The notes beneath the pieces are model-generated. The model was not told the origin of the DNA. It did no database searches and was given only the letters and a program-made list of their open reading frames with translations. From contig JALOPK010000003.1 of the NCBI GenBank assembly GCA_025453925.1, forward strand, positions 1 through 54,052: a stretch of 54,052 nt of DNA, in the 5' to 3' direction. The DNA comes from Candidatus Eiseniibacteriota bacterium. GTDB lineage: Bacteria; JAFGKV01. Positions 2,659 to 54,052 of the stretch are shown one piece after another (position 1 is the stretch's first letter; every line of letters begins with the position of its first letter). The position numbers and the translations under genes are program-made.

Positions 2659-2832
2659 GCCGTCACGCAGCCCACGGCCCCGATCGCGCTGCGGCATCCG
2701 GGCTGGCGCACCCTTTGTGTCCGGGCCTCCGGCCATGGATCCCTTGGACGTCGTCCGGGTACTCTCAACTGACGCACCCACGACACCTATCAGGCGCGCT
2801 CTACGGCCGTGAACCATACCAGGGAGCTTCCC

Positions 2833-15174: not shown

Positions 15175-16293
15175 ATGTCTTTCAAGAGACGATCGAAAGG
15201 GCAGGGTTTGCATCATCGTCAGGGCTCTTCGAAGGGGGGCCATTCCTCCCGGAGAGGAGTAGCCACACGCAGGGAGGCGATTCTCGATCTCATGTTCGTC
15301 ACCCCGGCGTTTGTCACGGGCACGGGAGAACACGCTGCCCCCGTCGGGATTTCCACCATACGCGAGCTCCTGCGGTGGTGGTATCGCGCTCTGGTGGGTC
15401 ATGAGGCCGTTCTGGGGCTTGTGGACGTTGAGCAAGCGGAGGCAGGAGTTTTCGGAAGTCCCCGGCTCAAGATCCGTTCACCGTTGCAGATTCAGGTCGT
15501 CCCCGGGACCTCCTTCGGCGTGATTCCCGCAGGGTCGCCGGCTCCGAGTAGCGGAATCATCCTGGACACGACCCCCAAGCTGGACAGCATTCACTATCTG
15601 GGGAGCGGGCCGGTGGGCCCCGTGGCCCGTCGGGAGTGCGATGATCACGGCGTCGCAAATGAAGCGGCGTTCAACGATCCCGCGACCGGCAAGGCGAGAC
15701 GCGGACAGATCCTCCGGCAGCCGGCCATCGCCGCGGGCACCACGTTTACCATCCACCTGAGCTGGAATGACGGCGCCTTGGACGATCGCCAGCAGGAAGA
15801 CCTGATTCGTGCAGCCGCGTCCTTGGTCGCGCTGGGAGGAATCGGCTCCCGAAGCAAGAAGGGATTCGGAGCGTTGGCCGGTGCGATCGATGCGGCGGAG
15901 ATCCCCGAAGCTCGGTCGTGGTGGGAGTCGCAAACCTACGGGATCCTTCACGGTCCGACCCTCTCGGCAACGGCGGGTTTCCCCTCATTCCCATGCCTGG
16001 CGTATGGGATCATACGGCCGGATCCGGTCGTCTCGTCCACGTGGGAGCATGCGATGGGAAGGCTTGGCCAACTCTATCTGGCCATCCGACCGCGCGGGGC
16101 CGCGGCCTGGATCGGGGGCTCGGCCCACCCGAAGCGGGATGCGTCCGTGCTCTTTTCGGTCTTGTCCGAGGAGGAGGGCTTCCGGGGGGTGGCGACGCTG
16201 CTTCCCTACGTGCAGCCAGGCGAGGAGGGAGCCCGTGACCTCCGTGACTACGTGACGGCTTTCAAGGAGTTCTGCTGGCCAGAAGAGGGCTGA
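15175..16293 (+). CDS. cmr1: Solitary Cmr1-family RAMP protein (type III CRISPR-associated fold) with a basic N-terminal tail
   Basis: Three matches to remembered P. furiosus Cmr1. (1) FVTPAFVTGTGE...IRELLRWWYRALVG...EAGVFGS...SPLQIQVVPG matches IKGAMRWWFRALAG...ENQVFGS...SRVKISVTP. (2) Glycine-rich RAMP loop LVALGGIGSRSKKGFGAL matches LVSLGSVGFRSRRGTGSM. (3) C-terminal ASVLFSV...GFRGVATLL resembles ASPLWFGV. GAGGTGA lies 6 nt before the ATG. Confidence 0.8.
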   Translation: MSFKRRSKGQGLHHRQGSSKGGHSSRRGVATRREAILDLMFVTPAFVTGTGEHAAPVGISTIRELLRWWYRALVGHEAVLGLVDVEQAEAGVFGSPRLKIRSPLQIQVVPGTSFGVIPAGSPAPSSGIILDTTPKLDSIHYLGSGPVGPVARRECDDHGVANEAAFNDPATGKARRGQILRQPAIAAGTTFTIHLSWNDGALDDRQQEDLIRAAASLVALGGIGSRSKKGFGALAGAIDAAEIPEARSWWESQTYGILHGPTLSATAGFPSFPCLAYGIIRPDPVVSSTWEHAMGRLGQLYLAIRPRGAAAWIGGSAHPKRDASVLFSVLSEEEGFRGVATLLPYVQPGEEGARDLRDYVTAFKEFCWPEEG

Positions 16294-27681: not shown

Positions 27682-28707
27682 ATGATCCACCGCCTCCATG
27701 CACTGCACGTCTTGTCGAGCGCGTTCACGTTCCTTGTCCTGCTGGCCTCCGCGTCCGGCGCCTCCGACCCCATGCCGCTGGGTTTTCCCGAGATCGGTAT
27801 CGAGCCCCCATCGTTGGGGATCGACGTGGTCGCGGGGAGTTCGACCGAGGCAACCTTCCTGGTAAGGAACACCGGCGACGGTGTCCTCGTGGTGTATGCC
27901 ATCGACGATGACGCCGTTTGGATGACTGAGACCCCGACAACCTTCTCGGTGCAGGCCAGTTCCTCCCAGACCGTGACCGTCAGCGTGGATGCCTCGGGAC
28001 TTCCGGCCGGCATCTACAATCAGACCATCTCCGTCTCGTGCAACGATCCCGACGAGGCAGACGTGACGGTGTCGGTCCGCGTCAACGTGACCCAGGCTTT
28101 GGGACCGGACATCTGGATCCGTCCCTCGACCATCGTCGTGTCGGTGCCCTCCGGCCAATCCACGACGGAAACGGTCATGGTGGGCAATTCCGGAGGCGCC
28201 GACCTGGTAGTGAGCTCCGTCACCGACGACGCTACGTGGGTGTCAGTGAGCCCGACCTCGTTCACCGTGGCGCCGGGCGACAGCCAGGCGCTGACCGTCG
28301 AGATACAGGCAAATCCTGGCGAGGGCGCGCACCAGGCCACCATCACCGTTGCGAGCAATGACGCCGATGAACCGACCGTGCAGGTCTCCGTGACCGAGAC
28401 CACCCGTGCCCTCCCGTGGGAACCTGGCACCCGCCTCGTGTTGGACGCGCCAGCGCCAAATCCATTCCGCACGACCACCGAGTTGCGATTTGAGCTCTCC
28501 CAACCTGCCGATATCACGTTGACGGTCCACGATCTGGCGGGACGAATCGTCGCGATCCTTGAGCAAGGGCCCCAAGACGCGGGCAACCACACGGTGCGCT
28601 GGACCGCGACCGAAGAGTCGGGGCGCCGAGTCATCCCCGGGCTCTACACCATCCGGCTCAATGCCGGCGACACCGTACGCAGCGTGAGGGCGGTGATGGT
28701 CCGTTAG
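27682..28707 (+). CDS. Secreted protein with two tandem Ig-like repeats and a FlgD-Ig/T9SS-type C-terminal domain
   Basis: Signal peptide. The two ~90-aa repeats run from GSSTEATFLVRNTGDGVLVVYAIDDDAVWM to VSCNDPDEADVTVSV, and from GQSTTETVMVGNSGGADLVVSSVTDDATWV to VASNDADEPTVQVSV. C-terminus is PNPFRTTTELRFELSQPADITLTVHDLAGRIV...GLYTIRL. Confidence 0.75.
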   Translation: MIHRLHALHVLSSAFTFLVLLASASGASDPMPLGFPEIGIEPPSLGIDVVAGSSTEATFLVRNTGDGVLVVYAIDDDAVWMTETPTTFSVQASSSQTVTVSVDASGLPAGIYNQTISVSCNDPDEADVTVSVRVNVTQALGPDIWIRPSTIVVSVPSGQSTTETVMVGNSGGADLVVSSVTDDATWVSVSPTSFTVAPGDSQALTVEIQANPGEGAHQATITVASNDADEPTVQVSVTETTRALPWEPGTRLVLDAPAPNPFRTTTELRFELSQPADITLTVHDLAGRIVAILEQGPQDAGNHTVRWTATEESGRRVIPGLYTIRLNAGDTVRSVRAVMVR

Positions 28708-43083: not shown

Positions 43084-44007
43084 ATGATCGAATCGCAACA
43101 ATCCAAGTCCAACGGAATCATGATCTCGCCCGCCATCGCCGGGAGTCTCGCCGCCGGTGGGGCCATCGTTGCGCTGGAGACGGCGGTTTTCACCCATGGC
43201 CTGCCCCGGGACGCCGCCGTGCCGTGCGTCCGTGAGATCCGAACGTCCGTGAAAGCAGAGGGGGCCGATCCGGCCATCTGTGGGGTCGTGGAGGGGCGGC
43301 CCACCATCGGGATGTCCGACCTCGAGATCGAGTGTCTGCTGACGGCCGAGGGAGAAAAGACCTCGCCGGCAACCCTTCCCCGTGTGGTCGGCCTCCGACA
43401 GTGGGCGGGGACAACGGCCGGAGCCACGATGATCCTCGCCCATCACGTGGGCATCACGTGCGTGGCGACGGGCGGCATCGGTGGCGTGCATCCGGGGGCA
43501 GGCCATGACGTCTCTGGAGACCTGACCTGCCTCGGCAGGTTGCCTCTCATTGTGATCTGCTCCGGGGCCAAAGCGATTCTAGATCTCGACGCCACCATGG
43601 AGGTTCTGGAGACGCTCGGCGTAACGGTGGTCGGGTACCGCACCGACGAGCTCCCCGGCTTTTACACGTGCACGACGGGGCGCCGGCTTCCCGGTCGGGT
43701 TGAGTCGCCGCATGAGATCATGGCGGTGTGGCGCGCAGCGCGATCGGTGGGGAGCCCCGCGTCCCTGGTGGTCATGAACCCTCCACCGGCTCATCTCGCG
43801 TTCGACGCACCGGCCGTGGAAGCCGCCGTCCGGCGCGCGCGACAGACCCCCTGTGCCGGCCCGTCCGCCACCCCTACCCTGCTCAGACTGGTTCAGGAGG
43901 ATCTTGGCCCCCGATCGGTGCAGCTCAACCAGGCCCTTCTTGTGGCGAACGCCCGGCTGGCTGCCCAGGTCGGAATCGTCATCTCTCGGGAAGGCTACTC
44001 CAGGTAG
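43084..44007 (+). CDS. psuG: Pseudouridine-5'-phosphate glycosidase
   Basis: GGAIVALETAVFTHGLPRD, TTAGATMILAH..GI.V.ATGGIGGVH and ICSGAKAILD. Its end overlaps the speA end convergently. Confidence 0.85.
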   Translation: MIESQQSKSNGIMISPAIAGSLAAGGAIVALETAVFTHGLPRDAAVPCVREIRTSVKAEGADPAICGVVEGRPTIGMSDLEIECLLTAEGEKTSPATLPRVVGLRQWAGTTAGATMILAHHVGITCVATGGIGGVHPGAGHDVSGDLTCLGRLPLIVICSGAKAILDLDATMEVLETLGVTVVGYRTDELPGFYTCTTGRRLPGRVESPHEIMAVWRAARSVGSPASLVVMNPPPAHLAFDAPAVEAAVRRARQTPCAGPSATPTLLRLVQEDLGPRSVQLNQALLVANARLAAQVGIVISREGYSR

Positions 44008-45923
44008 GTATACCCTTCCAGGCCCTCCTCCAGGAATTTCTGGATTCGGGCGCTCTCCTTGATGGTGATGCGCTTCCTCTCAATGCTCTCTTCGACCGCA
44101 CGTCGGAACATCGTCATGATATCGCGCTTCTGGTACTGCATGTACGCGAGCGCATCACGCACGGTATCACCTTCCACGATCTTGTCGATCCTGTAGGTGT
44201 TCTTACCCGTGATGCTCACGTGCACGGTGTGGGTATCACCGAAGAGATTGTGAAGGTCGCCAAGCACCTCCTGGTATGCCCCGACGAGAAACACCCCGAC
44301 ATGGTACGGATCCTTGCGGAGTTCATGCAGGTCGATGGTGTTGCGAACGTCGCGAAGGTCGATGAACTGATCGATCTTCCCGTCCGAGTCACAGGTGATA
44401 TCGGCGAATGTCGCCTTTCGGGTCGGTCGTTCCTGGAGGCGATGGATGGGAACCACCGGAAAGAGCTGCTTCACCGCCCAATGATCGGGGAGGCTTTGGA
44501 AGATGGACAGGTTGCCGTAGTAGATGTCTGACACGAACGAGTCCAGATGCTCGAATTCGTCCGGCACATAGTCCAGCCCGCGCACGATCTTGGCAATGCC
44601 CACGCAGATGAGCCAGAACAACCGTTCCGCCGTGGCTCGTGCTTCAAGCGAGAGCATCCCCACGTTGAAAAGGGTCAACGCCTCGTCTCGTGCCTGGATG
44701 GCGTCGTGATAGGACTCCTGGAAGTTCTTGACGGAGAGGCTGCGCAGGATCTCCAGAAGGCCACTCACGGGCTCAGGGGGCGCGGCGGGTATCTCCGGCA
44801 TGGCAGTCTCGGTGCTGAACTCGCTGGTGCCCAGCACGTTGAACACCAGAACCGAGTGGTAGGCCACCAAGGCGCGACCGCTCTCGGAAATGATGGTGGG
44901 ATGAGGCAGCCCATGAGCGGCACAGGTTTCGGATATGGCGGACACCACGTCGCTGGCGTACTCGAGCAGCGTATAGTTGGCGCTGGACGAGAAGTTCGTC
45001 ATGCTCCCATCATAGTCGACGGCAAGACCTCCTCCAACATCGAAGTAGCGGATGCCCACGCCGAGTCGCATCATCTCCGCGAAGAGCCTCGTGCTCTCCC
45101 GTAACGCATCCTTGATGCTCTGAATCGCAGTGATTTGAGAACCGAGATGGAAGTGGAGAAGCTGAAGGCAATCTAGCATCCCGGCCCGCTCAAGCTTCTG
45201 GATGGCCTCAAGGATCTCGGAGGGAAAGAGTCCGAACTTGGATCGGTCGCCACCGGAACCTTCCCACTTTCCCTTGCCCCGCGCCGCCAGCTTGGCCCGG
45301 ATGCCGATGACGGGGCGCACCTTCAACCGGCGTGCGACCTGGATGACGATGTCGAGTTCGGAAGGCTTCTCGACCACGATGAGGACCAGTCTGCCAAGCT
45401 TCTGTGCCCAGAGGGCTATCTCGATGAACTCGGTGTCCTTGTAGCCATTGCACACGATGGGAGCGCCCGGGGTGTCGAGTGACGCCACCGCGATGAGGAG
45501 TTCGGGTTTGCTCCCTGCCTCCAGACCGAAACGGTACGGCCTGCCGAATTCGATGATGTCCTCGACCACTTCCTTGCTCTGGTTCACCTTCACGGGATAG
45601 GCGCCAAGGTAGCCGCCTCCGTAGCCATAGTCGTGCATCGCCTGCTGAAATGAGGATTGGATCTCGTCGATTCGCTGTTTCAGGATGTCAGTGAATCGAA
45701 TGAGAATCGGAGGCGTGATGTCACGCATTCGAAGTTCATCGACAAGTTCTTTGATATCGAGGTAATGATCTCTGTTCTTGTGCGGGAGAACGATGACGTT
45801 GCCCTTCCCATTGATATCGAAGAATCCCTTGCCCCAGTTTTTCAGGCCGTAGAGTTCCCGCGCCATGTCGACTGACCATCGTTCCAACGCCGTCTGTTCC
45901 TTTAGCTTGATCTTTTGCCTCAT
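43995..45923 (-). CDS. speA: Biosynthetic arginine decarboxylase
   Basis: ELYGLKNWGKGFFDINGKGNVIV, ILIRFTDIL, AYPVKVN, LGSQI and the C-terminal tail match SpeA throughout. Confidence 0.92.
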   Translation of the reverse strand: MRQKIKLKEQTALERWSVDMARELYGLKNWGKGFFDINGKGNVIVLPHKNRDHYLDIKELVDELRMRDITPPILIRFTDILKQRIDEIQSSFQQAMHDYGYGGGYLGAYPVKVNQSKEVVEDIIEFGRPYRFGLEAGSKPELLIAVASLDTPGAPIVCNGYKDTEFIEIALWAQKLGRLVLIVVEKPSELDIVIQVARRLKVRPVIGIRAKLAARGKGKWEGSGGDRSKFGLFPSEILEAIQKLERAGMLDCLQLLHFHLGSQITAIQSIKDALRESTRLFAEMMRLGVGIRYFDVGGGLAVDYDGSMTNFSSSANYTLLEYASDVVSAISETCAAHGLPHPTIISESGRALVAYHSVLVFNVLGTSEFSTETAMPEIPAAPPEPVSGLLEILRSLSVKNFQESYHDAIQARDEALTLFNVGMLSLEARATAERLFWLICVGIAKIVRGLDYVPDEFEHLDSFVSDIYYGNLSIFQSLPDHWAVKQLFPVVPIHRLQERPTRKATFADITCDSDGKIDQFIDLRDVRNTIDLHELRKDPYHVGVFLVGAYQEVLGDLHNLFGDTHTVHVSITGKNTYRIDKIVEGDTVRDALAYMQYQKRDIMTMFRRAVEESIERKRITIKESARIQKFLEEGLEGYTYLE

Positions 45924-46077
45924 GCACCACCTCAATGGAATTGGGAGTGACAGTCAAGTATCCATCCGCGCGTGTCGGCGCAAGGGAATCGGTGCCTCCG
46001 TGCACCCTGAACCCCATGCCGGACCGTCAGCTCCTTCGACGGCAATGCCCCGGTGTCGCCCCCGCCATGTAGGAGGG

Positions 46078-47472
46078 TCAGTGCGGATCTGTCCGGTCGA
46101 TGATCATGACGGTGATATCATCGGACTGCTCCGTGCCTGCCGCGTACCGCCGCACCGAGCGAACCAACGCATCCGCGGCGTCTTCCGCGCTCCTGTTCAG
46201 CGTGCGGCCGACAAGGGCCAGCAGACGATCCATTCCGTACATGTCGCCATGCCGGTTCTGGGCCTCAACCACGCCGTCGGTATACAACACCACGCGATCA
46301 CCAGTGCGAAAGGGAAGATGGCGCACCATGCGAGGCAGGGCCGGGAACAGTCCGATAGGCAGGCCGGTGGCCGGAAGCTGGGTGACGTCGCCTTCACCCG
46401 TGATCAACAACCCGGGATTGTGGCCGGCGTTCGAGAACACGAGCATGTCGTTCTCTACCGCGGCCATCAAGAGCGTGATGAAGGTTCCCGCGGGCATGAT
46501 CTTGGACAGGTGCGCATCGATGGTCACAGTCTGAGCGAGCAGATCGAGCTCTTGCTCACCGAGGTACCGGAGCAGACCGGAGAGGCTCGCCATCCATAGC
46601 GCGGCGCCCGGACCCTTGCCGCTTACGTCGCCCACCATGACATAGTAGCGCTGTCCCACGGCGAACCCGTCGTAAAGGTCCCCCCCCATGCGCCGAGCGG
46701 GGAGATTGACTGCTGAGATTCGCAGACCGGCGGGGGGATCGAAGCTGCGCGGCAGCATCTTTCGCTGGAAGGACTGCGCCACGGAGAGTTCCATCTCCAT
46801 GCGTCGCTTCCTCAGTTCCGCCTCGTGCATCCTGCTCTTCTGGAGGGCAAGGCTGGCGACGACCGCGAAAGCTTCGAGGAGGCCCTGGTCGTCACGACTG
46901 AAACAACCGCCCTGTCGGCGGTTGAGTACCTGAATGGTGCCCAGGATGCGGGAACCCGCCTTCAATGGCACGCACAGGTAGCCCCGAGTGGTGAATCCCG
47001 TCATATCCCCCACCCCTGCATAGTGGCGCGGATCATGGGAGACATCCCCGATGTTCGCCGTTTCCCCCGTCCGCGCGACCCAGCCCGCGATGCCGGTGCT
47101 CAGGGGGAATCCAACCCTCTCCATGACGCGCGGGGGTAGATTGGTTGACGCCGCCATCATCAGACGCCGGCGGTGGTGGTCCAGGAGAAAAACGGATGCC
47201 GCCTCGGCATGCGTGAGCCGACGCGCCGCGTGCATGACATGTCGCAGGACGCGGTGAAAGTCATGTTCCCGAAGAACCGACTGCAACGCGTGAAGCAGAG
47301 CCGCGCTTCTTCCGTCCAATGTGCACTCCCGCGGAAACCGCCCCGTGGCGGAAGGAACACGGTACGCGCGACAGGGGCAAGCAGTGGCTCGGCGGGGCTC
47401 CGGCCCGGCCACCAGAGTCGTCAGGAGTTCATTTGGGAGCTCGCCGACCCGGAGGAGCCGGGGATGGCTCAT
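46078..47472 (-). CDS. GAF domain - PP2C (SpoIIE/RsbU-type) serine phosphatase
   Basis: GAF region: ASVFLLD...TGIAGWVARTGE..NI.DV..DPR...CVPL. PPM/SpoIIE region: GGDLYD...VMVGDVSGKG..AAL...TLLMA...NAGHNP...LYTDGVVEA...DDITVMII. Its ATG overlaps the protease stop (ATGA). Confidence 0.85.
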   Translation of the reverse strand: MSHPRLLRVGELPNELLTTLVAGPEPRRATACPCRAYRVPSATGRFPRECTLDGRSAALLHALQSVLREHDFHRVLRHVMHAARRLTHAEAASVFLLDHHRRRLMMAASTNLPPRVMERVGFPLSTGIAGWVARTGETANIGDVSHDPRHYAGVGDMTGFTTRGYLCVPLKAGSRILGTIQVLNRRQGGCFSRDDQGLLEAFAVVASLALQKSRMHEAELRKRRMEMELSVAQSFQRKMLPRSFDPPAGLRISAVNLPARRMGGDLYDGFAVGQRYYVMVGDVSGKGPGAALWMASLSGLLRYLGEQELDLLAQTVTIDAHLSKIMPAGTFITLLMAAVENDMLVFSNAGHNPGLLITGEGDVTQLPATGLPIGLFPALPRMVRHLPFRTGDRVVLYTDGVVEAQNRHGDMYGMDRLLALVGRTLNRSAEDAADALVRSVRRYAAGTEQSDDITVMIIDRTDPH

Positions 47473-47984
47473 CCCTGTCGGCGGTTGGTGGGCTCCCGGT
47501 GTCCGCCGTCGGGCGCGTCACCTCTCTCGAACCCACGGATGCGGGCCGTGACCACCCCCTGGAGATGCCCCGCCGCCCGGGCGACGGGCTCGCTGAGTCG
47601 CTCAGTGAATTCGGTTGGCATGGCGATGCGCACGCCCCACACCTCCCACCGCGGGAAGCTGTCGGGGCCGTGGATGGCTTCCAGATGCGCGAGGAGAGTG
47701 GCGACATCGGTGTGGTGGAACGACGGTGCGTGCAACCGGCAGCCGCCCGTGATCAGGTCGATCTGGCCGATGGGCTGCCCGACGAGGGCATCCAGCACGA
47801 TGAGGTGGCCGATCCTCCCTACCCAGTCGTCCAGTTCGAACAGATCGCCCTCAATGCGATGAAACGCGACGCGTCGACTCCACTGGGCCTGGATCCGAAG
47901 GCGCTCCAGCACCACATGCCCCACCCCGTCGTCCCCCAGCAAGGGATTCCCGGCGCTGGCGACGAGTATTGGAGAGCGGGGAAT
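47469..47984 (-). CDS. [NiFe] hydrogenase maturation endopeptidase (HybD/HoxW/FrhD family); start codon unresolved
   Basis: The conserved N-terminus ILVASAGNPLLGDDGVGHVV is encoded in frame, but the only ATG/GTG/TTG is the TTG inside it at 47942. The in-frame region upstream, back to the stop at 48066, has only ATT (47984) and ATA (47969) as near-cognate starts. Confidence 0.75.
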   Translation of the reverse strand: MPRSPILVASAGNPLLGDDGVGHVVLERLRIQAQWSRRVAFHRIEGDLFELDDWVGRIGHLIVLDALVGQPIGQIDLITGGCRLHAPSFHHTDVATLLAHLEAIHGPDSFPRWEVWGVRIAMPTEFTERLSEPVARAAGHLQGVVTARIRGFERGDAPDGGHREPTNRRQG

Positions 47985-47988
47985 CGAC

Positions 47989-48711
47989 TCAGGTATGGAC
48001 TTCGAGGTCGTACCGGCAACTCTCCCAAGTGCGGTCCGTGTGTACCAGCTTGAGCCGGGATTTGGTCACCTTTCCCAGATACCCCAGCAGGTAGGTGCCG
48101 AACAGGGTGCACAGATCCCCTCCCAGGTCAAGGTGCTCCCTCCTGCAGAGATCGCGAACGAAGCATCCTTTGACGGAGACCTTCAGCGACCCGTTCTGTC
48201 GGGCCGTATCGCCAATGATCCAGGCGGGATTCAACCCGTCACGTACGACCTGTATCGCCTGGTCGAACGTCTCGGGAAGCTGGTAGCGGGGCAACTGAGC
48301 CGCCAACGTCGTGCCCGCCATCCGCCCGACGGCGGGGAGTGCCGCGCCAAGCGTCTGACGGAGCACCGAGGCCATGGAGAGCAGACGGATGCCCAGATCC
48401 TCAAGCGCCTTCTCCCGTTCCGCGGCCTCTGCGGAGACACCCAACTCCGGCGGGGTGCTGAGCCCCAACCGCGACGCGAGCCTCACTGCGTAATCATCAT
48501 GATAGAAGTTCCGGCTAATCAGTATCCCTTGGTGATCGATCGCATCTGCGGGGCAGATCTTTGAGCAGCTCAGGCAGCCGAAGCACATCTCAGGCCTCGT
48601 GACCACGGGGAGCCGTTTGGCTTCGTCGAACTCGAACACGTCGGTCGGACACTCGTCGACGCAGAGCGTGCACCCGACGCAGGCCTTGTCATCAACCTTG
48701 ATTGTGACCAT
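47989..48711 (-). CDS. 2x[4Fe-4S] ferredoxin domain fused to a V4R-like domain
   Basis: CVGCTLCVDECP and CFGCLSCSKICP. C-terminal ...GDLCTLFGTYLLGYLGKV...ESCRYDLEV resembles the V4R (4-vinyl reductase) Cys pattern. GGGAGGAG precedes the ATG, 4 nt after the large-subunit stop. Confidence 0.75.
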   Translation of the reverse strand: MVTIKVDDKACVGCTLCVDECPTDVFEFDEAKRLPVVTRPEMCFGCLSCSKICPADAIDHQGILISRNFYHDDYAVRLASRLGLSTPPELGVSAEAAEREKALEDLGIRLLSMASVLRQTLGAALPAVGRMAGTTLAAQLPRYQLPETFDQAIQVVRDGLNPAWIIGDTARQNGSLKVSVKGCFVRDLCRREHLDLGGDLCTLFGTYLLGYLGKVTKSRLKLVHTDRTWESCRYDLEVHT

Positions 48712-48715
48712 GATC

Positions 48716-50110
48716 CTATCTCCTCCCGATGGTCCTCAGCGTAACCCCATTCCTTCGAAGGGCGATCTCCAGCGGCATTCTGCCGGCGGCGTGGGTCGCG
48801 CATGAGAGGCAGGGGTCAAAGCACCGCAGGGCGAACTCCATGGCATTGGTCAGAGTTGCTTCGCCCTGGGGCATGTAGTGCCGGGCCAACGACGTGATGG
48901 AGGCATCGATGGCGCGGTAGTTGTTCTGCGTCGCAACGATGAGGTTGGCACTCAGCACTCGGCCTGAGCTGTCGGCCGTGTAATCATGCACCAGCAAGCC
49001 GCGTGGGGCCTCGATGGCGGCAACGAACCTGCCTTCTTTAGGCGTAGCCGCCACTCGCGTCGGCGAATCGGGGAGCGGCGCCGAGGAGATTTCCGCCATG
49101 CGTTCCGCGCAGTAGAGCAGTTCAACCAGTCGGGCTTCGATGTACGTAACCGGAGAGAGTGCGACGCCATGTCGCTGCCGGTATTCCTGGAGCAGCGCAT
49201 TCGCACGGGGCGTGCTCATCGTCTTCGCGATGTTGAGGCGGGCGAGCGGCCCGACGAGATACTCCTTCTCCGGCGCTCCGCGGAGCGTCACCGATTTCAT
49301 GTACGAACCAGGCATCACATGCTCGACCAGGTGGGTAGCGTAGTCCGCCGGTGCGAACCTGCGCTCCACGCTGCCGCCCTGGTCGATGACCGCCACATCG
49401 CCCGCAAGGAAGGAGAACGCCCCGCGGTCGGTGATCGCCAGGCTGTGGAACGGCAACCGGGATGACTGGCTCGCGTCGCGAAAGTCCTCGAGCTTCGACA
49501 TCACCACAGCGGCCAACTCCGTCACGAGGCTCATGGACTCCCTGCCCCACTCGGCGATCTGCCCCATCTGCTCGGCGCTGGGCCTTGCTGACATGCCTCC
49601 CGGCACGGCCGCCACCGGATGAACGCCCCGGCCCCCGACGATCTCCACGACCTTCTGCCCTATGCTCCGAAGTCGGAGGGCCTTCTTGGCCACATCGGGG
49701 TGGGCCTTGAGGATACCGAAGATGTTGCGTTCGGCGGGATCTGAACCGATGCCCAGCGTCACGTCGGGGCCAAGCAGCACAAACGTGCTCAACGCGTGGG
49801 AGTGGAGAACATGACCCATATAGAGAAGCTCGCGCAGCATCGTCGCCGTGGAGGGCACCGTGAGGCCGAGCCCGTTCTCGATGGCCATGACGGACACGAT
49901 ATGGTGCGCCGCCGGACACACGCCGCAGATGCGGGCGGTGACCTGCGGCATACGAAAGAGCTCCATCTTCTCCAGAAGCTTCTCGAAGCCTCGGATTTCC
50001 AGCACCTGGAGGTGGCCGCGTTCAACCTGGCCCTTGTCGTCGATGTCGATGAAAATCCTGGCGTGGCCTTCGATTCGGGTGACGGGATCGACGGTGATGG
50101 TGGTGGACAT
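48716..50110 (-). CDS. [NiFe] hydrogenase large subunit, group-3-like (cytosolic)
   Basis: VDPVTRIEGH, RGFEKLL, RICGVCPAAHH (N-terminal Ni ligands) and C-terminal DPCLSCATH followed by a 24-aa extension. GGAGG precedes ATG 50110. Confidence 0.92.
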   Translation of the reverse strand: MSTTITVDPVTRIEGHARIFIDIDDKGQVERGHLQVLEIRGFEKLLEKMELFRMPQVTARICGVCPAAHHIVSVMAIENGLGLTVPSTATMLRELLYMGHVLHSHALSTFVLLGPDVTLGIGSDPAERNIFGILKAHPDVAKKALRLRSIGQKVVEIVGGRGVHPVAAVPGGMSARPSAEQMGQIAEWGRESMSLVTELAAVVMSKLEDFRDASQSSRLPFHSLAITDRGAFSFLAGDVAVIDQGGSVERRFAPADYATHLVEHVMPGSYMKSVTLRGAPEKEYLVGPLARLNIAKTMSTPRANALLQEYRQRHGVALSPVTYIEARLVELLYCAERMAEISSAPLPDSPTRVAATPKEGRFVAAIEAPRGLLVHDYTADSSGRVLSANLIVATQNNYRAIDASITSLARHYMPQGEATLTNAMEFALRCFDPCLSCATHAAGRMPLEIALRRNGVTLRTIGRR

Positions 50111-50121
50111 TCTCGGCCTCC

Positions 50122-51051
50122 TCAGGAAGTGGCGGCCTGCGAAGGCCCGGCCCATTCCCGGATCTCAACCGTGGGCTTCTTGTAGATGGTGGGGGACGCC
50201 ATGGCGTAGGCGAAGAAAGTATTCGCGTTCATTTCCAAATAGGAAACGGTATCCTTCCTGGGGATGCCGCAGAGCTTCTCCATCCGCTCGGCCAGTTCGG
50301 TACGGGTGTCGCGGTTCGGGTCGGTCAATACGTCCAGCGATGGTCCGGCGCACCCGGTGCAGGCCACCCCGATCTTCGGGCACGGCGCCAGACACCGGTT
50401 GAGCGAAACGGAGCCGAGGCAGATGATGCCCTGGGAAAGAAAACACAGATCAGGATCATCGCCGACGACGGCGGCTGGCACGAGTTGTACTCCGGCGCGT
50501 TTCTGCATTTTTCGGTTGCAGTCCGCGCACACCGAGCGGTGGGTGAGGCCGGGCTTGGAGCTGTCCAGCAGATTGTGGAGCCCTGCGGCCACAAAGAACG
50601 GGTGCGGAGGACAACCCGGGAGGTAGAGGTCGACCGGCACGTACTCATCGATGGGTCTCACGCTCTCCTCCAGGCTCGGCACCCCGCTGTCGGGTCGCTC
50701 TCCTCCCGCGTTGGTCGGCCCCCTCTCATACACGGCGTCGAAGACGTCGTCTTTGCGGTAGAGCCACCCGACTCCCGACGGACCCCCGTATACCGCGCAT
50801 GTACCATAGGCGACGAGCACGTCGACACTCCCACGTATCTTGTGGAGCGCCTCCAGGTCATGCTCGCTTCGAACGGCGCCCTCCACGATCCCCACATTCG
50901 CCTTCGGGTACGTCTTCTGGTCGACGAGAACTGGCGACCTGACGATCTCCATGTCATCAAGCAGGCCGAAGAGCTTCTCGTGAAGATCGACAAGCGCCAC
51001 ATGACAGCCGGAGCAGCCCGACAACCACTCGGTCGACACGGTGGCCTTCAT
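50122..51051 (-). CDS. [NiFe] hydrogenase small subunit, group-3-like, no Tat signal
   Basis: MKATVSTEWLSGCSGCHVA, GTCA, LPGCPP, and distal/medial cluster Cys (CADC...CLGSVSLNRCLAPCP...CTGC). Start overlaps the stop of the upstream V4R gene (ATGA). Confidence 0.9.
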   Translation of the reverse strand: MKATVSTEWLSGCSGCHVALVDLHEKLFGLLDDMEIVRSPVLVDQKTYPKANVGIVEGAVRSEHDLEALHKIRGSVDVLVAYGTCAVYGGPSGVGWLYRKDDVFDAVYERGPTNAGGERPDSGVPSLEESVRPIDEYVPVDLYLPGCPPHPFFVAAGLHNLLDSSKPGLTHRSVCADCNRKMQKRAGVQLVPAAVVGDDPDLCFLSQGIICLGSVSLNRCLAPCPKIGVACTGCAGPSLDVLTDPNRDTRTELAERMEKLCGIPRKDTVSYLEMNANTFFAYAMASPTIYKKPTVEIREWAGPSQAATS

Positions 51052-51533
51052 TTCGCTTCCTCCCAGATGAGTTCCTTCAGGCAGGCGTTGGGGCCGGCAT
51101 GAAGGATCTCGAGGTGCACCGTAGCGTTGGGCATGACCCGCTCCATGGCCCCCGCAAACACGCCGTGCGCCATGTAGCAGAGTGACTGCTTCTGCTCGTG
51201 GGCATAGCAAAACAGGGCATTGCGTACCATGCAGGTGTGGAAGGCAAGGCGAATCTTCTTCTTCCCATCCTCTTCGATTATCACGCCGCGATCCCCCTCG
51301 AAGGGGGCGAAATCCCAGAAGATACCGCGGGCAGTCAGGGCATTCCGAAGGATGTCGACGGCCTTGAATGGATCACTGGTTTGCTCGGCGGCCTGGACTG
51401 CCTCCTTCCCGAACTTCTTGCCAGCCAGCACGGAGAGGGAGAGGCTACTCCTACCGAGGTTGTTCTCACACGCGTGCGCCAGGGCGCCGAGGAAATAGGA
51501 GACCTGGTGGATCGCGGCATGGTCATCGGTCAT
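51048..51533 (-). CDS. V4R domain (COG1719-like predicted small-molecule/hydrocarbon-binding) protein
   Basis: LCYMAHGVFAGAMERVM...VHLEILHAGPNACLKELIW matches the V4R C-terminal pattern C..xG..xG....E....G...C. GGAAGGAG precedes ATG 51533. It is the first gene of the hydrogenase operon. Confidence 0.65.
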   Translation of the reverse strand: MTDDHAAIHQVSYFLGALAHACENNLGRSSLSLSVLAGKKFGKEAVQAAEQTSDPFKAVDILRNALTARGIFWDFAPFEGDRGVIIEEDGKKKIRLAFHTCMVRNALFCYAHEQKQSLCYMAHGVFAGAMERVMPNATVHLEILHAGPNACLKELIWEEAK

Positions 51534-52116
51534 GGTATTGCTCCTTCCATGAGCCCTGTAATAAAACAGCATATGTCTTCGGGAATGCAGTACGCATTCG
51601 GTCCAGCGCACGAACGCCGTCGCCTTTGGAGTTCGGCTCCGCGACGGCCCGACCGGCCTGCCGTGCCACGCATCCTCGACGTTGGAGCCGAGGGGGCTTC
51701 GCGTTTATGGGGCCAGCGTGTTTGACGAAGTCTGCAACCGCCGTGCCGCACGATTCCCGCAGTTGGTGACCACCCATTTGATGCGATCCCGCTGAGGGTG
51801 AGATTCCCGGCACGGGCCATGCTCATTCCACCAACCTGCATCGCGGTGACGCAGTGTGGGCCAGCCTTGCGCGGCCCGGTCAAGGTCCATTGGTTGCACA
51901 TAGGTGTCCCCCGACATCGAGGGCGCCCCGCAACGCGTGCGTGGTCGCCGCGCGCGGCTTCTTTCGGTCAGGCAACAAGCTCCGGCCATGAGGAGGCGAG
52001 CGCGTGACAGTTATGAACGCCTGTGCAGGGATGGGTCACGAAGTGATCGTGCCCATCGCCTCGCGGCGAACGTTCGTGAGAAGGCGCCAGCCTTCTCCGA
52101 GAGAGGAGTACGTGAC

Positions 52117-52467
52117 ATGGCAATAAGGGATACGCTCGAGATGCTGGCGAAGACCCCCGGAATCACTTCCGCGATTCTGGTGAGTCGTGATGGGTTCGTG
52201 ATTGAGGCCATCGCGTCATCGAACGTGGACGTTGAGGCAGTGGGCGCCATCATATCCACCGGCCTCGGCACAGCGGAAATGATGGGGAGCGGCCTCGAGC
52301 AGGGCGCCTTCAATCAGGCAATGATGGAGTTCGACCAGGGCGTCGCATTCCTGAAGGGCGTGAGTGACCAGGCCATGCTCGCGGCGACCGCCACGACAGG
52401 CGGGAATCTTGGCGCGATTCGGATCGCGGTGCGCAAGGCGGCGGAACAGTTGGCGCCGGAGGTATAG
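52117..52467 (+). CDS. Roadblock/LC7 (MglB-like) domain protein
   Basis: LEMLAKTPGITSAILVSRDGFVIEA...AIISTGLGTAEMM...FDQGVAFLKGVSDQAMLAA is a classic Roadblock/LC7 pattern. GAGAGGAG precedes the ATG. Confidence 0.8.
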   Translation: MAIRDTLEMLAKTPGITSAILVSRDGFVIEAIASSNVDVEAVGAIISTGLGTAEMMGSGLEQGAFNQAMMEFDQGVAFLKGVSDQAMLAATATTGGNLGAIRIAVRKAAEQLAPEV

Positions 52468-52715
52468 ACTCGCGTTCGCCGCCCTTCCCCCGTGGATGGC
52501 CGTCCGGAAGGGAGTGACTGACGCGTGGTGTGCCGTGCCATGACCGCAACCGTGCAGGCTGACGAACCTGTTCAGGAGCGCCCAAAGGCGCAGCAGCTGT
52601 CGATGCGACTCGTCGATGGCTGCGATTCGCATCGGGGCATGATTCGGGTGCTCGTCGTCGGCTCGGAGCAAACCTTCCAGCTGGGCTCCGAACCTCGCCG
52701 CTCTGCGCGTCAACC

Positions 52716-53408
52716 TTGCTGTTGATCGTGGGTGAAGGCGAGGAGTTCCGCACTCACCAATGTGTGCCGAAGTGCCGTGCTCATCTGTTTTCGTATGATG
52801 ACGAGGAGCGACTTCGGTCCTTCGTAGAGTGCAGGCTCATCGCTCACAACGCGATTCGCTCCCTCTTTGCACTCGGCGGTTCATTGCCGTCAGGAGGGAT
52901 CCGATCGATTCTGCCCATCTTGGAATCCGAACGGCGCAGTGGCAGACTGGTCGTCCAGCCCCGGGATGAATCCCGCGACCAGATCACACTCTGGGTTCGG
53001 GACGGAGAGCCCCTTGCGGCCTATTCCGAGGGGATGAGACTGGATGAGCCGCTGAAGCTGATCGGCGACGTGTTTGACGGGTGGTTCGGTTTCATCGAAA
53101 CCGCGGTCGACCGGGACATGCTGATGCGTTTGGACGCCTGGTCCGATCAGGTGTCAGGAAAGAACGTGGGCGTGCAGACGGACCGCGAAGCCGGGGGGCT
53201 TCGGCAGCGGCTGCGGGTGGCCCTGATGACCGCCCGGACGATCGGCGAGATGCGGGAAGCGGTCGAGTCACTCCTGGACGCGGGGATTGACAGGGCTGCC
53301 GAGGACGGAGACACCTCACAGATGGACAGACTCGCCGACGTGTCCATTCTCCTTCAGAAGAATCAGATCGAAGAGGCGTTCAAGCTCCTCACGGTCATGC
53401 TCCGGTAA
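52716..53408 (+). CDS. DUF4388 (PATAN)-like protein
   Basis: GGIRSILPILESERRSGRLVVQP....ITLWVRDGEPLAAYS resembles the DUF4388 core. Only a TTG start is available, so the N-terminus is uncertain. Confidence 0.45.
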   Translation: MLLIVGEGEEFRTHQCVPKCRAHLFSYDDEERLRSFVECRLIAHNAIRSLFALGGSLPSGGIRSILPILESERRSGRLVVQPRDESRDQITLWVRDGEPLAAYSEGMRLDEPLKLIGDVFDGWFGFIETAVDRDMLMRLDAWSDQVSGKNVGVQTDREAGGLRQRLRVALMTARTIGEMREAVESLLDAGIDRAAEDGDTSQMDRLADVSILLQKNQIEEAFKLLTVMLR

Positions 53409-53427: not shown

Positions 53428-53916
53428 ATGTGCCCGCTCAGCAAAGTCCTTATGTTGTCCGACGAGCGCGAGAAGATCGAAACGGTCCTGGATGTGCTCA
53501 TCGAAAGGAGCGGAGGACTGTGTGCCATACTCATCACCAAGGATGGCCACACCATCTCTGCCCGTGGAAACGTGTCATTCCTCAACATCACCGCCCTGGC
53601 GACGCTGGTTGCGGGATCGTTCGCCGCCACTCGGCAAGTCGCCGCCCTCTTGGGCGAAAAGGAGTTCTCAATTCTCTTCCAGCAGGGTGCGACCCGCCAC
53701 GTTCACATCTCACTGGTGGCCGGCACGGCCATGCTCATCGTGGTGTTCGAGGATTCCACCCGCATCGGGCTCGTACGCCTGCAGGCGAAACGGGCCGGAG
53801 ATGAACTCGCCACCCTGATGAGCGCATCCCGCGAACGTACGGAACGGGAGGAACTGATCGTGGCCCAGTTCAAGGAGTTCGCTGCGAGCCTCATTGACAG
53901 GATTTTCAGCGAGTAG
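53428..53916 (+). CDS. mglB: MglB (Roadblock/LC7-type GAP of MglA)
   Basis: LDVLIERSGGLCAILITKDGHTISARG...LATLVAGSFAATRQVA...ILFQQGATRHVHISLV..AMLIVVF. It lies immediately upstream of mglA and overlaps it. AGGAGG lies 5 nt before the ATG. Confidence 0.8.
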   Translation: MCPLSKVLMLSDEREKIETVLDVLIERSGGLCAILITKDGHTISARGNVSFLNITALATLVAGSFAATRQVAALLGEKEFSILFQQGATRHVHISLVAGTAMLIVVFEDSTRIGLVRLQAKRAGDELATLMSASRERTEREELIVAQFKEFAASLIDRIFSE

Positions 53917-54052
53917 TGTCGACTATCAATTTTGCCACTCGCGAAATCAACTTCAAGATTGTGTATTATGGGCCGGGGTTGAGCGGCAAGACTACGAACC
54001 TGATCTACATGTACCGCAGGCTTACGGATGATAAGAAGGGCCAGCTCATCAC
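53916..54052 (+). CDS. mglA: Ras-like GTPase MglA (5' part, truncated by the window end)
   Basis: The hand-translated sequence starts at a GTG start codon and reads [42 protein letters not shown]. It is nearly identical in pattern to M. xanthus MglA ([28 protein letters not shown]). GTG overlaps the mglB stop (TAGTG). Confidence 0.9.
   Translation, partial: [45 protein letters not shown]

Follow-up and report, generated by a model that had tools for sequence, protein, structure and literature searches.

Gene content of the locus

The 54-kb contig JALOPK010000003.1 of a Candidatus Eiseniibacteriota bacterium, the whole of which is called the window below, carries a [NiFe]-hydrogenase operon in which the genes for the two hydrogenase subunits stand between genes for two putative V4R/TRAPPC3-like proteins. 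The region analyzed spans positions 46078-51533, and the neighboring genes were read up to the contig end at position 54052. An earlier note on this DNA had listed six packed genes on the minus strand, and all six open reading frames (ORFs) were recovered, tightly packed, upon reading the sequence of this region. In the direction of transcription they are:

51048-51533, minus strand: p1, stand-alone V4R/TRAPPC3-like protein of 161 aa, first gene of the operon (by hhalign and predicted fold)
50122-51051, minus strand: [NiFe]-hydrogenase small subunit, MvhG type, 309 aa (Oxidored_q6, VhuG, and PDB matches)
48716-50110, minus strand: [NiFe]-hydrogenase large subunit, 464 aa (NiFeSe_Hases, VhuA, and PDB matches)
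47989-48711, minus strand: ferredoxin-V4R fusion protein, 240 aa (Fer4 families and predicted fold)
47469 to about 47984, minus strand: hydrogenase maturation endopeptidase, start uncertain (TIGR00072 match of the extended ORF)
46078-47472, minus strand: GAF-PP2C phosphatase of the SpoIIE type, 464 aa (SpoIIE and GAF domains)

The TGA stop codon of p1 overlaps the ATG start codon of the small subunit gene as ATGA (51051-51048), and the same overlap joins the stop codon of the protease gene to the ATG of the phosphatase gene (47472-47469); both had been listed in the earlier note. The spacer between the small and large subunit genes has a length of 11 nt and includes a GGAGG motif, a gap of 4 nt separates the large subunit gene from the ferredoxin fusion gene, and another GGAGG sits 8 nt upstream of the p1 ATG. 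Translational coupling between the protease and the phosphatase is suggested by their overlap, but only tentatively, because the phosphatase could also start at an in-frame GTG or TTG further downstream.

A conserved five-gene module

Related loci were collected with the large subunit and with p1 as seeds, and the proteins of the window were mapped onto them by tblastn. For p1, a scan of genome contigs with a single protein query yielded 9 loci, and a metagenome scan with a p1 alignment added further loci. At least 85 non-redundant loci were found, which stem from sediments, soils, peat, lakes, and digesters. The counts given below are drawn from 85 non-redundant loci, and the denominators are the loci that have enough flanking sequence.

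The core of p1, small subunit, large subunit, ferredoxin fusion, and protease occurs in the same order at 38 of the 39 loci with at least 4.2 kb of downstream sequence. Among the collected loci, p1 was never met apart from the small subunit gene, and its orthologs, which are 56-89% identical across phyla, are always encoded directly 5' of that gene. The loci that were seeded from the large subunit all carry p1 and the ferredoxin fusion or its slot (6/6), while the genes 3' of the protease vary between the relatives and are not conserved. The hosts include Fermentibacteria, Aegiribacteria, Eisenbacteria, Acidobacteriota (with Thermoanaerobaculia among the lineages), and Desulfuromonadales. The five genes from p1 to the protease are a discrete and widespread hydrogenase subtype, in which two V4R/TRAPPC3-like proteins stand in for the usual partner subunits.

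The genes of the module have database names that are either "hypothetical protein" or generic throughout. Cluster look-ups with ten p1 proteins returned only 'hypothetical protein' entries from metagenomes or metagenome-assembled genomes (MAGs), and no cultured organism. Genome papers list such genes just as "[NiFe]-hydrogenase" or "group 3c" (PMC4846661, PMC5900883), and in full-text searches of the literature neither V4R-like subunits nor a linkage to Roadblock, PATAN, and GTPase genes, which is described below, was found for any hydrogenase. A group 3c enzyme has been reported for Thermoanaerobaculum aquaticum (PMC5900883). Because of this report, and because MAGs of the Thermoanaerobaculaceae were found to carry the module in the scan of genome contigs, T. 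aquaticum MP-01 may be a candidate cultured host.

Hydrogenase subunits and maturation protease

The small subunit matches the Pfam family Oxidored_q6 (4.1e-26) and has the N-terminus MKATVSTEWLSGCSGCH. It has no Tat signal, because its start is directly the conserved CxxC region, and it bears the cysteine sets for the proximal, medial, and distal [4Fe-4S] clusters. The top NCBIfam match is VhuG (1.6e-61, under the equivalog cut-off). The alignment with the MvhG chain 5odc_E (1.3e-62) covers residues 5-244 and includes the Cys-rich C-terminal half, which holds the medial and distal clusters; the chains of HoxY and HydS are short. Judged from its sequence, the small subunit is unambiguously of the long MvhG type.

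The large subunit matches NiFeSe_Hases (Pfam, 3.6e-26). Its translation contains the motifs RICGVCPAAH and DPCLSCATH, which fit the ligand motifs RxCGxCxxxH and DPCxxCxxH, and a C-terminal extension of 24 residues follows after DPCLSCATH. The top NCBIfam match is VhuA (4.2e-85), with 285.8 bits compared to an equivalog cut-off of 800, followed by ShyA and FrhA, and all of these matches are far under the equivalog cut-offs. The matches in the PDB are MvhA (5odc_F, 6.9e-92), HydL (7t2r_D, 3.6e-91), and HoxH (1.6e-78), and the large subunits carry the JGI label 'F420-non-reducing hydrogenase'. The large subunit of the window has a 100% identical counterpart among the proteins of a Ca. Eisenbacteria MAG. 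The family and PDB matches of the large subunit, together with the long MvhG-type small subunit, therefore make "group 3c-like" the right term, and the operon is predicted to encode a cytoplasmic [NiFe]-hydrogenase of the MvhA/MvhG type together with a dedicated maturation protease. The earlier description of a cytosolic, group-3-like enzyme with no Tat signal, an MvhG/MvhA-like cysteine layout, and a C-terminal extension is borne out by these results, with VhuA/VhuG and MvhA/MvhG as the top matches.

Genes for FlpD/MvhD, Hdr, FrhB, and HoxEFU were not found among the ORFs of the 54-kb window, and FlpD/MvhD and Hdr were not found within 8-10 kb in eight annotated relatives. Also, the window and the surroundings of the annotated relatives contain no genes for NAD(P)/flavin subunits, Hdr, MvhD, or membrane anchors. 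The absence of the usual group 3 partners, which had been noticed earlier, thus holds locally, i.e., in the window and around the relatives.

The protease has no Pfam match, and it matches TIGR00072 (5.8e-15, 55.6 bits compared to a cut-off of 47.45) only when the ORF is extended to position 47984. It carries ILVASAGNPLLGDDGVG in the N-terminal GNxxxxDD(G) metal-binding region. The first canonical start codon is a TTG at 47942, and the conserved N-terminal strand ILVASAGN lies upstream of it. Upstream of this strand there is no ATG, GTG, or TTG, and only an ATT at 47984 or an ATA at 47969 is available. In the relatives, the start codon of the protease gene at the corresponding position is a GTG or an ATG.

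Two V4R/TRAPPC3-like proteins

The earlier note had assigned two V4R modules to the operon. At the level of the Pfam family V4R (PF02830) this assignment fails for both proteins: p1 reaches 13.9 bits (E=0.061), where the gathering score is 31, and for the ferredoxin fusion no match of the C-terminal domain was obtained even at E<=10. There is also no match of p1 to PDB sequences even at E<=10. However, the assignment stands at the level of remote homology for p1 and at the level of the predicted fold for both proteins. In a comparison with hhalign, the p1 profile aligned with an archaeal protein above the threshold of Pfam V4R (42.9 bits) at a probability of 92.4% (E=5.3e-7), and with a V4R protein of locus L003 with E=2.4e-4. 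Among 31 distant p1 relatives, six match Pfam V4R and six match ATC_hydrolase, a neighboring family. The C-terminal domain of the fusion aligned with the p1 family (hhalign E=0.002) over 130 collinear columns, with three cysteines in register between p1 and the fusion (C101=C183, C119=C201, C151=C232), and hhalign gave no match between the fusion family and the archaeal V4R protein. Because it has no direct V4R match, the V4R status of this domain rests on the fold and on the link to p1.

AlphaFold2 models were obtained with pLDDT values of 83 for p1 and 82 for the ferredoxin fusion. Foldseek retrieved BcsD, Bet3/TRAPPC3, MopR, and H-NOX with the model of p1, and TRAPPC3, BcsD, MopR/DmpR, and TPC6 (TM-score up to 0.69) with that of the fusion. 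Both models matched the same set of structures, including YslB, with a probability of 1.00, TM-scores of 0.4-0.69, and E-values of 1e-4 to 1e-3. The models support a placement of p1 and of the C-terminal domain of the fusion in the V4R/TRAPPC3 fold superfamily, whose two-layer alpha/beta architecture includes N-terminal helices, yet outside of Pfam V4R.

In the fusion protein, a linker connects the N-terminal 2x[4Fe-4S] ferredoxin domain (residues 1-62) with the V4R/TRAPPC3-like domain (residues ~100-240). The N-terminal part matches Fer4 families of Pfam, and the ferredoxin domain is nearest to units of the FwdF and MvhB polyferredoxins and to the ferredoxin domain of HdrA. Four cysteines are invariant in the C-terminal domain (C183, C189, C201, C232). 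The invariant residues of p1 are C101, H112, C119, H123, E131, and C151, and its strongly conserved polar residues are R104, N105, H112, Q114, K115, H123, and E131. The V4R/TRAPPC3 fold dimerizes via N-terminal helices, and PoxR as well as Thor-TRAPPC3 hold Zn by four cysteines in a comparable position (PMC10933270). As the parsimonious reading we infer that p1 and the fusion would form a heterodimer, with a Cys3His and a Cys4 metal site and with ligand cavities. Four-Cys Zn sites are typical of the fold (PMC10933270), and the idea that the cysteine motifs must be additional Fe-S clusters was therefore rejected, although they may be such clusters.

The p1 family is narrow. When a library of 1.84 billion representatives was searched, a single cluster at 50% identity took in all of the orthologs, and only 65 such clusters matched the p1 profile at E<=1e-3. 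Some members carry the JGI name "predicted hydrocarbon binding protein". As a side observation, the archaeal locus L013 (9923-12174) encodes a V4R protein, a KaiC-like ATPase, and then a protein with two V4R domains, which also matches the methanogen output domain MetOD1.

A Roadblock/PATAN/GTPase neighborhood

A gene for a Roadblock/LC7 protein lies within 5.5 kb upstream of p1 at 32 of the 33 loci with enough upstream sequence, and within 1.5 kb at 39 of 53 loci. Within the same 5.5 kb, PATAN/DUF4388 genes were found at 26 of the 33 loci and genes for an MglA/Arf-like small GTPase at 15 of 33. Of the Roadblock genes nearest to p1, those of 41 loci run in the same direction as p1 and those of 6 loci run divergently, with a median gap of about 170 nt. 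Locus L015, from a Desulfuromonadales MAG, has genes for a histidine kinase and for a REC-PATAN-Roadblock fusion upstream of p1, and only 34 bp separate their end from p1. At L006 and L098, Roadblock, GTPase, and PATAN genes are directly upstream of p1 and co-directional with it, and at L098, which belongs to Ca. Aegiribacteria MLS_C, two Roadblock genes, a GTPase gene, a PATAN gene, and a gene for an AAA+ protein lead straight into p1. This AAA+ protein (7029-8528 of L098) lies between PATAN and p1 and carries a Bac_DnaA domain. An AAA+ protein with this domain, in this case fused to a receiver domain, is also encoded near the module at L097 (17313-18488).

In the window, the corresponding genes follow p1 on the opposite strand up to the contig end:

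51534-52116, no strand assigned: divergent intergenic region of 583 bp between p1 and the Roadblock gene (read from the sequence)
52117-52467, plus strand: Roadblock/LC7 (MglB-like) protein, 116 aa (Robl_LC7)
52683-53408, plus strand: PATAN/DUF4388-like protein, N-terminally cut (DUF4388; tblastn to the 338-aa protein of L001)
53428-53916, plus strand: second Roadblock-like protein, 162 aa (Robl_LC7; L001 ortholog)
53916-54052, plus strand: MglA/Arf-like small GTPase, 5' end only, cut by the contig end (tblastn to the 192-aa GTPase of L001)

The first Roadblock protein, which is encoded divergently from the operon, matches Robl_LC7 with 2.4e-12 (46.9 bits compared to a cut-off of 23) and is 94% identical to its ortholog at L001, one of the closest syntenic relatives. 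The PATAN-like protein just passes the DUF4388 cut-off of 25 (1.4e-5, 25.5 bits), compared to 72.3 bits for the 338-aa protein of L001, to which it is 59% identical (tblastn). The second Roadblock-like protein matches Robl_LC7 with E=0.0015 and its L001 ortholog, with which it shares 88% identity, does so with 6.9e-5. The start of the GTPase is 91% identical over 45 aa to the GTPase of L001 (tblastn). The latter matches Arf (3.6e-5, 23.7 bits compared to a cut-off of 22.3) and Ras (0.0031), and "MglA-like" here denotes a likeness and not the placement in a clade. No motility genes were seen in the window. The stretch covered by the earlier note excludes the Roadblock, PATAN, and GTPase genes, and therefore this linkage went unnoticed there. 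Its idea that the hydrogenase is wired to signaling holds in the form of the genomic linkage to Roadblock, PATAN, and MglA-like GTPase genes, while it fails in the form of a coupling to the PP2C phosphatase, which is treated below.

Several observations were made on the sequence around these genes. A sibling contig from another metagenome (L096) carries 148 extra bp at 52682/52683 and is otherwise 99.95-100% identical to the window. This difference falls inside the gene for the 338-aa PATAN/DUF4388-like protein, and therefore the window copy is N-terminally cut or frameshifted; the difference is due to either population heterogeneity or an assembly error. The two ends of the contig are formed by a Lactamase_B-Rhodanese gene (1-1660) and by the cut GTPase gene (53916-54052). 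At L001 these two genes are neighbors, with only about 1.5 kb between them, which is taken up by the remainder of the GTPase gene and by a PatA_N gene. Therefore, the 54-kb contig would almost close on itself; it nonetheless carries the genes for ATP synthase, pheST, and prs. At L003/L017 (2792-4529), a second set of small genes is located near the module. It encodes an ATC_hydrolase-like protein of 178 aa, a protein of 177 aa, and a true Pfam V4R protein of 203 aa, and it recurs at L006, L025, and L028, about 2.6-4.4 kb upstream of p1.

The 583-bp divergent region 51534-52116 presumably holds promoters. No sigma-70 or sigma-54 consensus stood out in it, and a sigma-54 promoter search upstream of p1 at 84 loci performed no better than with shuffled sequence. 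The same was true for a sigma-70 and terminator scan of the operon in comparison with shuffles, and an Rfam scan of the whole window gave zero matches.

The GAF-PP2C phosphatase

The phosphatase gene encodes genuine signaling domains, i.e., SpoIIE (3.3e-43, 148.3 bits compared to a Pfam cut-off of 25) and GAF (1.5e-17; GAF_2 with 64.5 bits compared to a cut-off of 28.6). Of the domain calls that the earlier note had wished to see checked by profiles, SpoIIE and GAF are therefore above the Pfam thresholds, and only V4R is below. The GAF domain is nearest to the cyclic-nucleotide-binding GAF domains of PDE2A, PDE5, and CyaB2, and the PP2C domain is nearest to Rv1364c, SpoIIE, and RssB.

The coupling of the hydrogenase to a PP2C phosphatase, which the earlier note had proposed as a feature of the module, is not conserved. 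A tblastn search found no GAF or PP2C homolog downstream of the protease in any of 32 non-redundant loci with at least 6 kb of downstream sequence, and the lone PP2C match elsewhere is unrelated and located 4.8 kb upstream at L050. The phosphatase gene was not found in the closest syntenic relatives L001 and L097, in which other genes directly follow the protease gene, nor in L098. The closest relatives have 72% identical large subunits and the same flanks, and one of them shares the synteny of speA, Indigoidine_A, and ATP synthase. Because the closest relatives keep these flanks without the PP2C gene, the phosphatase gene seems to have been inserted between the protease gene and speA recently and in this lineage only, outside of the conserved module. 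Of the two co-occurrences across genomes that were to be checked, the one with the V4R-like genes thus holds (38/39 loci), and the one with PP2C does not (0/32). A lack of conservation of the PP2C link is an outcome that the earlier note had itself named as speaking against its proposal. A search for a STAS or anti-sigma kinase partner, which had been suggested earlier for the whole genome and was run on the ORFs of the window, found none. In this organism the phosphatase may add a second, cyclic-nucleotide-responsive output or layer of control. As side observations, the speA (arginine decarboxylase) region 44001-46000 has a G+C content of 0.577, compared to about 0.64 for the rest of the contig, and speA is 88% identical to its L001 ortholog.

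Other features of the window

The remaining ORFs of the window encode ATP synthase, PheRS, Prs, SpeA, peptidases, and similar functions. A protein of 1388 aa (2809-6975) combines a gingipain-like Peptidase_C25 domain with a C-terminal FlgD_ig domain, and a second FlgD_ig-tailed protein, with Ig repeats, is encoded at 27682-28707. The ORF 15175-16293 contains a domain of the CRISPR-associated RAMP superfamily (4.6e-8).

Comparison with known systems

The closest solved relatives of the two subunits are MvhA (6.9e-92) and MvhG (1.3e-62) of the Mvh-Hdr system. The module shares with it the three-cluster small subunit, the predicted cytoplasmic location, the C-terminal extension, and the protease. 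In addition, the order of p1, small subunit, large subunit, and ferredoxin fusion mirrors the order D-G-A-B of the mvhDGAB operon of methanogens, and the ferredoxin domain is like the units of the MvhB and FwdF polyferredoxins. In contrast to Mvh-Hdr, neither MvhD ([2Fe-2S], FlpD) nor HdrABC is encoded nearby, the V4R-like p1 takes the place of MvhD, and only one 2x[4Fe-4S] unit, fused to a V4R-like domain, takes the place of MvhB. Moreover, the large subunit is far under the VhuA equivalog score. The core thus belongs to the group 3 [NiFe]-hydrogenases and is predicted to operate in the manner of the Mvh hydrogenase, but locally it lacks the association with MvhD and Hdr that defines Mvh. It is as similar to HydL (3.6e-91) of the Acetomicrobium mobile HydABCSL complex (PDB 7t2r) as to MvhA. 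However, HydS of that complex is a short, one-cluster protein of 179 aa, and the flavin/NADH subunits HydABC are absent here.

Soluble [NiFe] heterodimers that are genomically tied to signal transduction are also represented by the group 2b enzymes HoxBC and HupUV with their kinases HoxJ and HupT, and by the putative group 2c, and at L015 the genes directly upstream of the module encode a histidine kinase and a protein with a REC domain. The subunits of the module, however, belong to group 3 and not to group 2, additional ferredoxin and V4R-like subunits are present, and the partners are Roadblock, PATAN, and MglA-like proteins instead of a PAS kinase or a GGDEF protein. In the group 2b H2 sensors the C-terminal extension and the protease have been lost, while the large subunit of the module keeps its C-terminal extension and a dedicated protease, and because both are retained the module is not a group 2b-type sensor. 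The phosphatase-linked, putatively sensory [FeFe] group C3 has in common with this contig, and with this contig only, that a PP2C gene is located behind the hydrogenase genes and overlaps with the final one. It differs from the [NiFe] module, in which no PAS domain is fused to the hydrogenase and the PP2C link was found at none of 32 loci.

The predicted fold is shared with the V4R domains of XylR, DmpR, MopR, and PoxR, with stand-alone archaeal V4R proteins, and with TRAPPC3/Bet3, and the profile of p1 matches a true V4R protein. The conserved cysteine cluster of the module proteins lies in the Zn-binding region of PoxR and Thor-TRAPPC3 (PMC10933270). In contrast to all of these, the pair is under the Pfam V4R threshold and forms a very tight family of its own, and it is encoded as subunits of a hydrogenase, with one of the two fused to a ferredoxin. 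The neighboring genes encode Roadblock/LC7, Arf/Ras-like GTPase, and PATAN/DUF4388 proteins as in the MglA/MglB polarity switch and the PATAN regulators of type IV pilus motility, and REC-PATAN fusions as in the PatA-type regulators also occur beside the module. However, no report was found of such modules adjoining a hydrogenase, and motility genes were not seen in the window.

Possible functions of the module

The reading that we favor, with not quite an even chance of being correct, is a functional coupling of the hydrogenase module to a small-GTPase switch, which it would probably supply with an H2 or redox input. Electrons from H2 would pass from the NiFe site via the three clusters of the small subunit to the two clusters of the ferredoxin domain, five in all. 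The two V4R-like domains would pair as a heterodimer, as the fold does elsewhere, and each would be stapled by its Cys3His or Cys4 metal (probably Zn) site and contain a ligand cavity. A small-molecule-binding or conformationally responsive module would thus be placed at the end of the electron wire. The pair would bind a small molecule or shift its conformation with the redox state, the neighboring Roadblock and PATAN proteins would read this state and set that of the MglA-like GTPase, and the hydrogenase would be the H2 or redox input to the switch. Several points weigh against this view. The hydrogenase is linked to the Roadblock, PATAN, and GTPase proteins at the genomic level only, the GTPase was detected in fewer than half of the neighborhoods (15/33), and the information flow could be reversed, so that the GTPase module would regulate or position the enzyme. 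The extension and the protease are both kept, as in a normal catalytic enzyme, and a two-cluster ferredoxin domain is expected of an enzyme that hands electrons to a soluble carrier. The cysteine sites of p1 and the fusion could hold Fe-S clusters instead of Zn. Lastly, p1 has a median identity of 64% and is more conserved than typical signaling proteins, which fits better to a cofactor- or substrate-binding subunit.

Several of these points also speak for a purely metabolic, bidirectional cytoplasmic hydrogenase, which we regard as the main alternative and a serious possibility, although clearly short of an even chance. The ferredoxin domain would exchange electrons with soluble ferredoxin, or the V4R-like pair would bind a small-molecule or hydrophobic electron acceptor as the true substrate, and the Roadblock, PATAN, and GTPase genes would only regulate, position, or happen to accompany the enzyme. 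A large subunit of the catalytic type with extension and dedicated protease, an MvhG-type small subunit with three clusters, a 2x[4Fe-4S] domain akin to the MvhB and FwdF polyferredoxins, and the very strong conservation of p1 with its many invariant polar residues all agree with this explanation. So do the hosts, which belong to fermentative or anaerobic lineages (Fermentibacteria, Aegiribacteria, Thermoanaerobaculia, Desulfuromonadales), and for one of which, Ca. Aegiribacteria MLS_C, only one [NiFe]-hydrogenase has been reported (PMC4846661). However, a purely metabolic role leaves unexplained why a Roadblock gene is linked to the module at 32 of 33 loci across phyla and orientations, and why a histidine kinase and a REC-PATAN-Roadblock fusion are arranged with it at L015. 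Moreover, V4R-fold proteins are known as sensors, output domains, and scaffolds and not as redox subunits, and no conserved gene for an acceptor side is located nearby. A further explanation would be an ordinary group 3c Mvh enzyme, for which MvhD and HdrABC are encoded elsewhere and which takes part in electron bifurcation, with the V4R-like proteins in a minor role in accessory functions or assembly. The best structural relatives are MvhA and MvhG from the Mvh-Hdr complex, the JGI name of the large subunits points in the same direction, and for Ca. Aegiribacteria MLS_C a heterodisulfide reductase has been reported to be encoded at some place in the genome (PMC4846661). We nevertheless consider this explanation very unlikely, in view of the lack of FlpD/MvhD and Hdr genes in the window and within 8-10 kb in the eight annotated relatives, of the invariant occupation of the MvhD and MvhB operon positions by p1 and the ferredoxin fusion, and of the score of the large subunit, which is 285.8 bits compared to the VhuA cut-off of 800 bits, with the non-Hdr protein HydL (7t2r_D) as close as MvhA.

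Similarly improbable is the model of the earlier note, i.e., an H2 or redox sensor with the GAF-PP2C phosphatase as output via a partner-switching cascade, like the phosphatase-linked [FeFe] group C enzymes. The protease and phosphatase genes do overlap as ATGA on the same strand, the SpoIIE and GAF domains are genuine, and signaling genes otherwise surround the module. Against this stand the absence of PP2C from the 32 related loci and from the nearest syntenic relatives, its appearance as an insertion before speA, and the lack of a STAS or anti-sigma kinase partner in the window. The GAF domain is like those that bind cyclic nucleotides, which suggests an independent input of its own, and the phosphatase would at most be a lineage-specific add-on.

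The favored coupling to a small-GTPase switch can be carried further. Bet3-like proteins, Roadblock-like proteins, and small GTPases are the set of folds that is used by eukaryotes in TRAPP and Ragulator. The hydrogenase could be the H2- or redox-sensing head of a prokaryotic TRAPP/Ragulator-like assembly that steers polarity or type IV pilus motility, an idea that we regard as unlikely but worth stating. In such an assembly, the MvhAG core would oxidize H2 and load the ferredoxin wire, the state of the Bet3/V4R-like heterodimer would be read by Roadblock/longin-like and PATAN proteins, and these would act as a GTPase-activating protein or a guanine nucleotide exchange factor for the MglA-like GTPase. 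The result would be hydrogen or energy taxis via a Ras-like switch.

Implications

Three questions meet in this module, namely, the roles of group 3c-type hydrogenases in bacteria, the roles of prokaryotic V4R proteins, and the origin of the signals that enter bacterial Roadblock/MglA-type GTPase modules. None of the described group 3 enzymes has the same subunit composition, and the module has signaling proteins in place of redox proteins as genomic partners. The point of interest is not the PP2C coupling but the V4R-type hydrogenase module, with its conservation and its link to a cassette for small-GTPase signaling. In the case of a metabolic enzyme, the V4R-like pair would hint at an electron acceptor that is new, and metabolic models that file these genes under "Mvh-Hdr bifurcation" would need correcting. 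If the functional coupling is true, it would represent a new way for cells to sense H2 or their redox state, and a bacterial case of Bet3-like and Roadblock-like proteins that work with a small GTPase.

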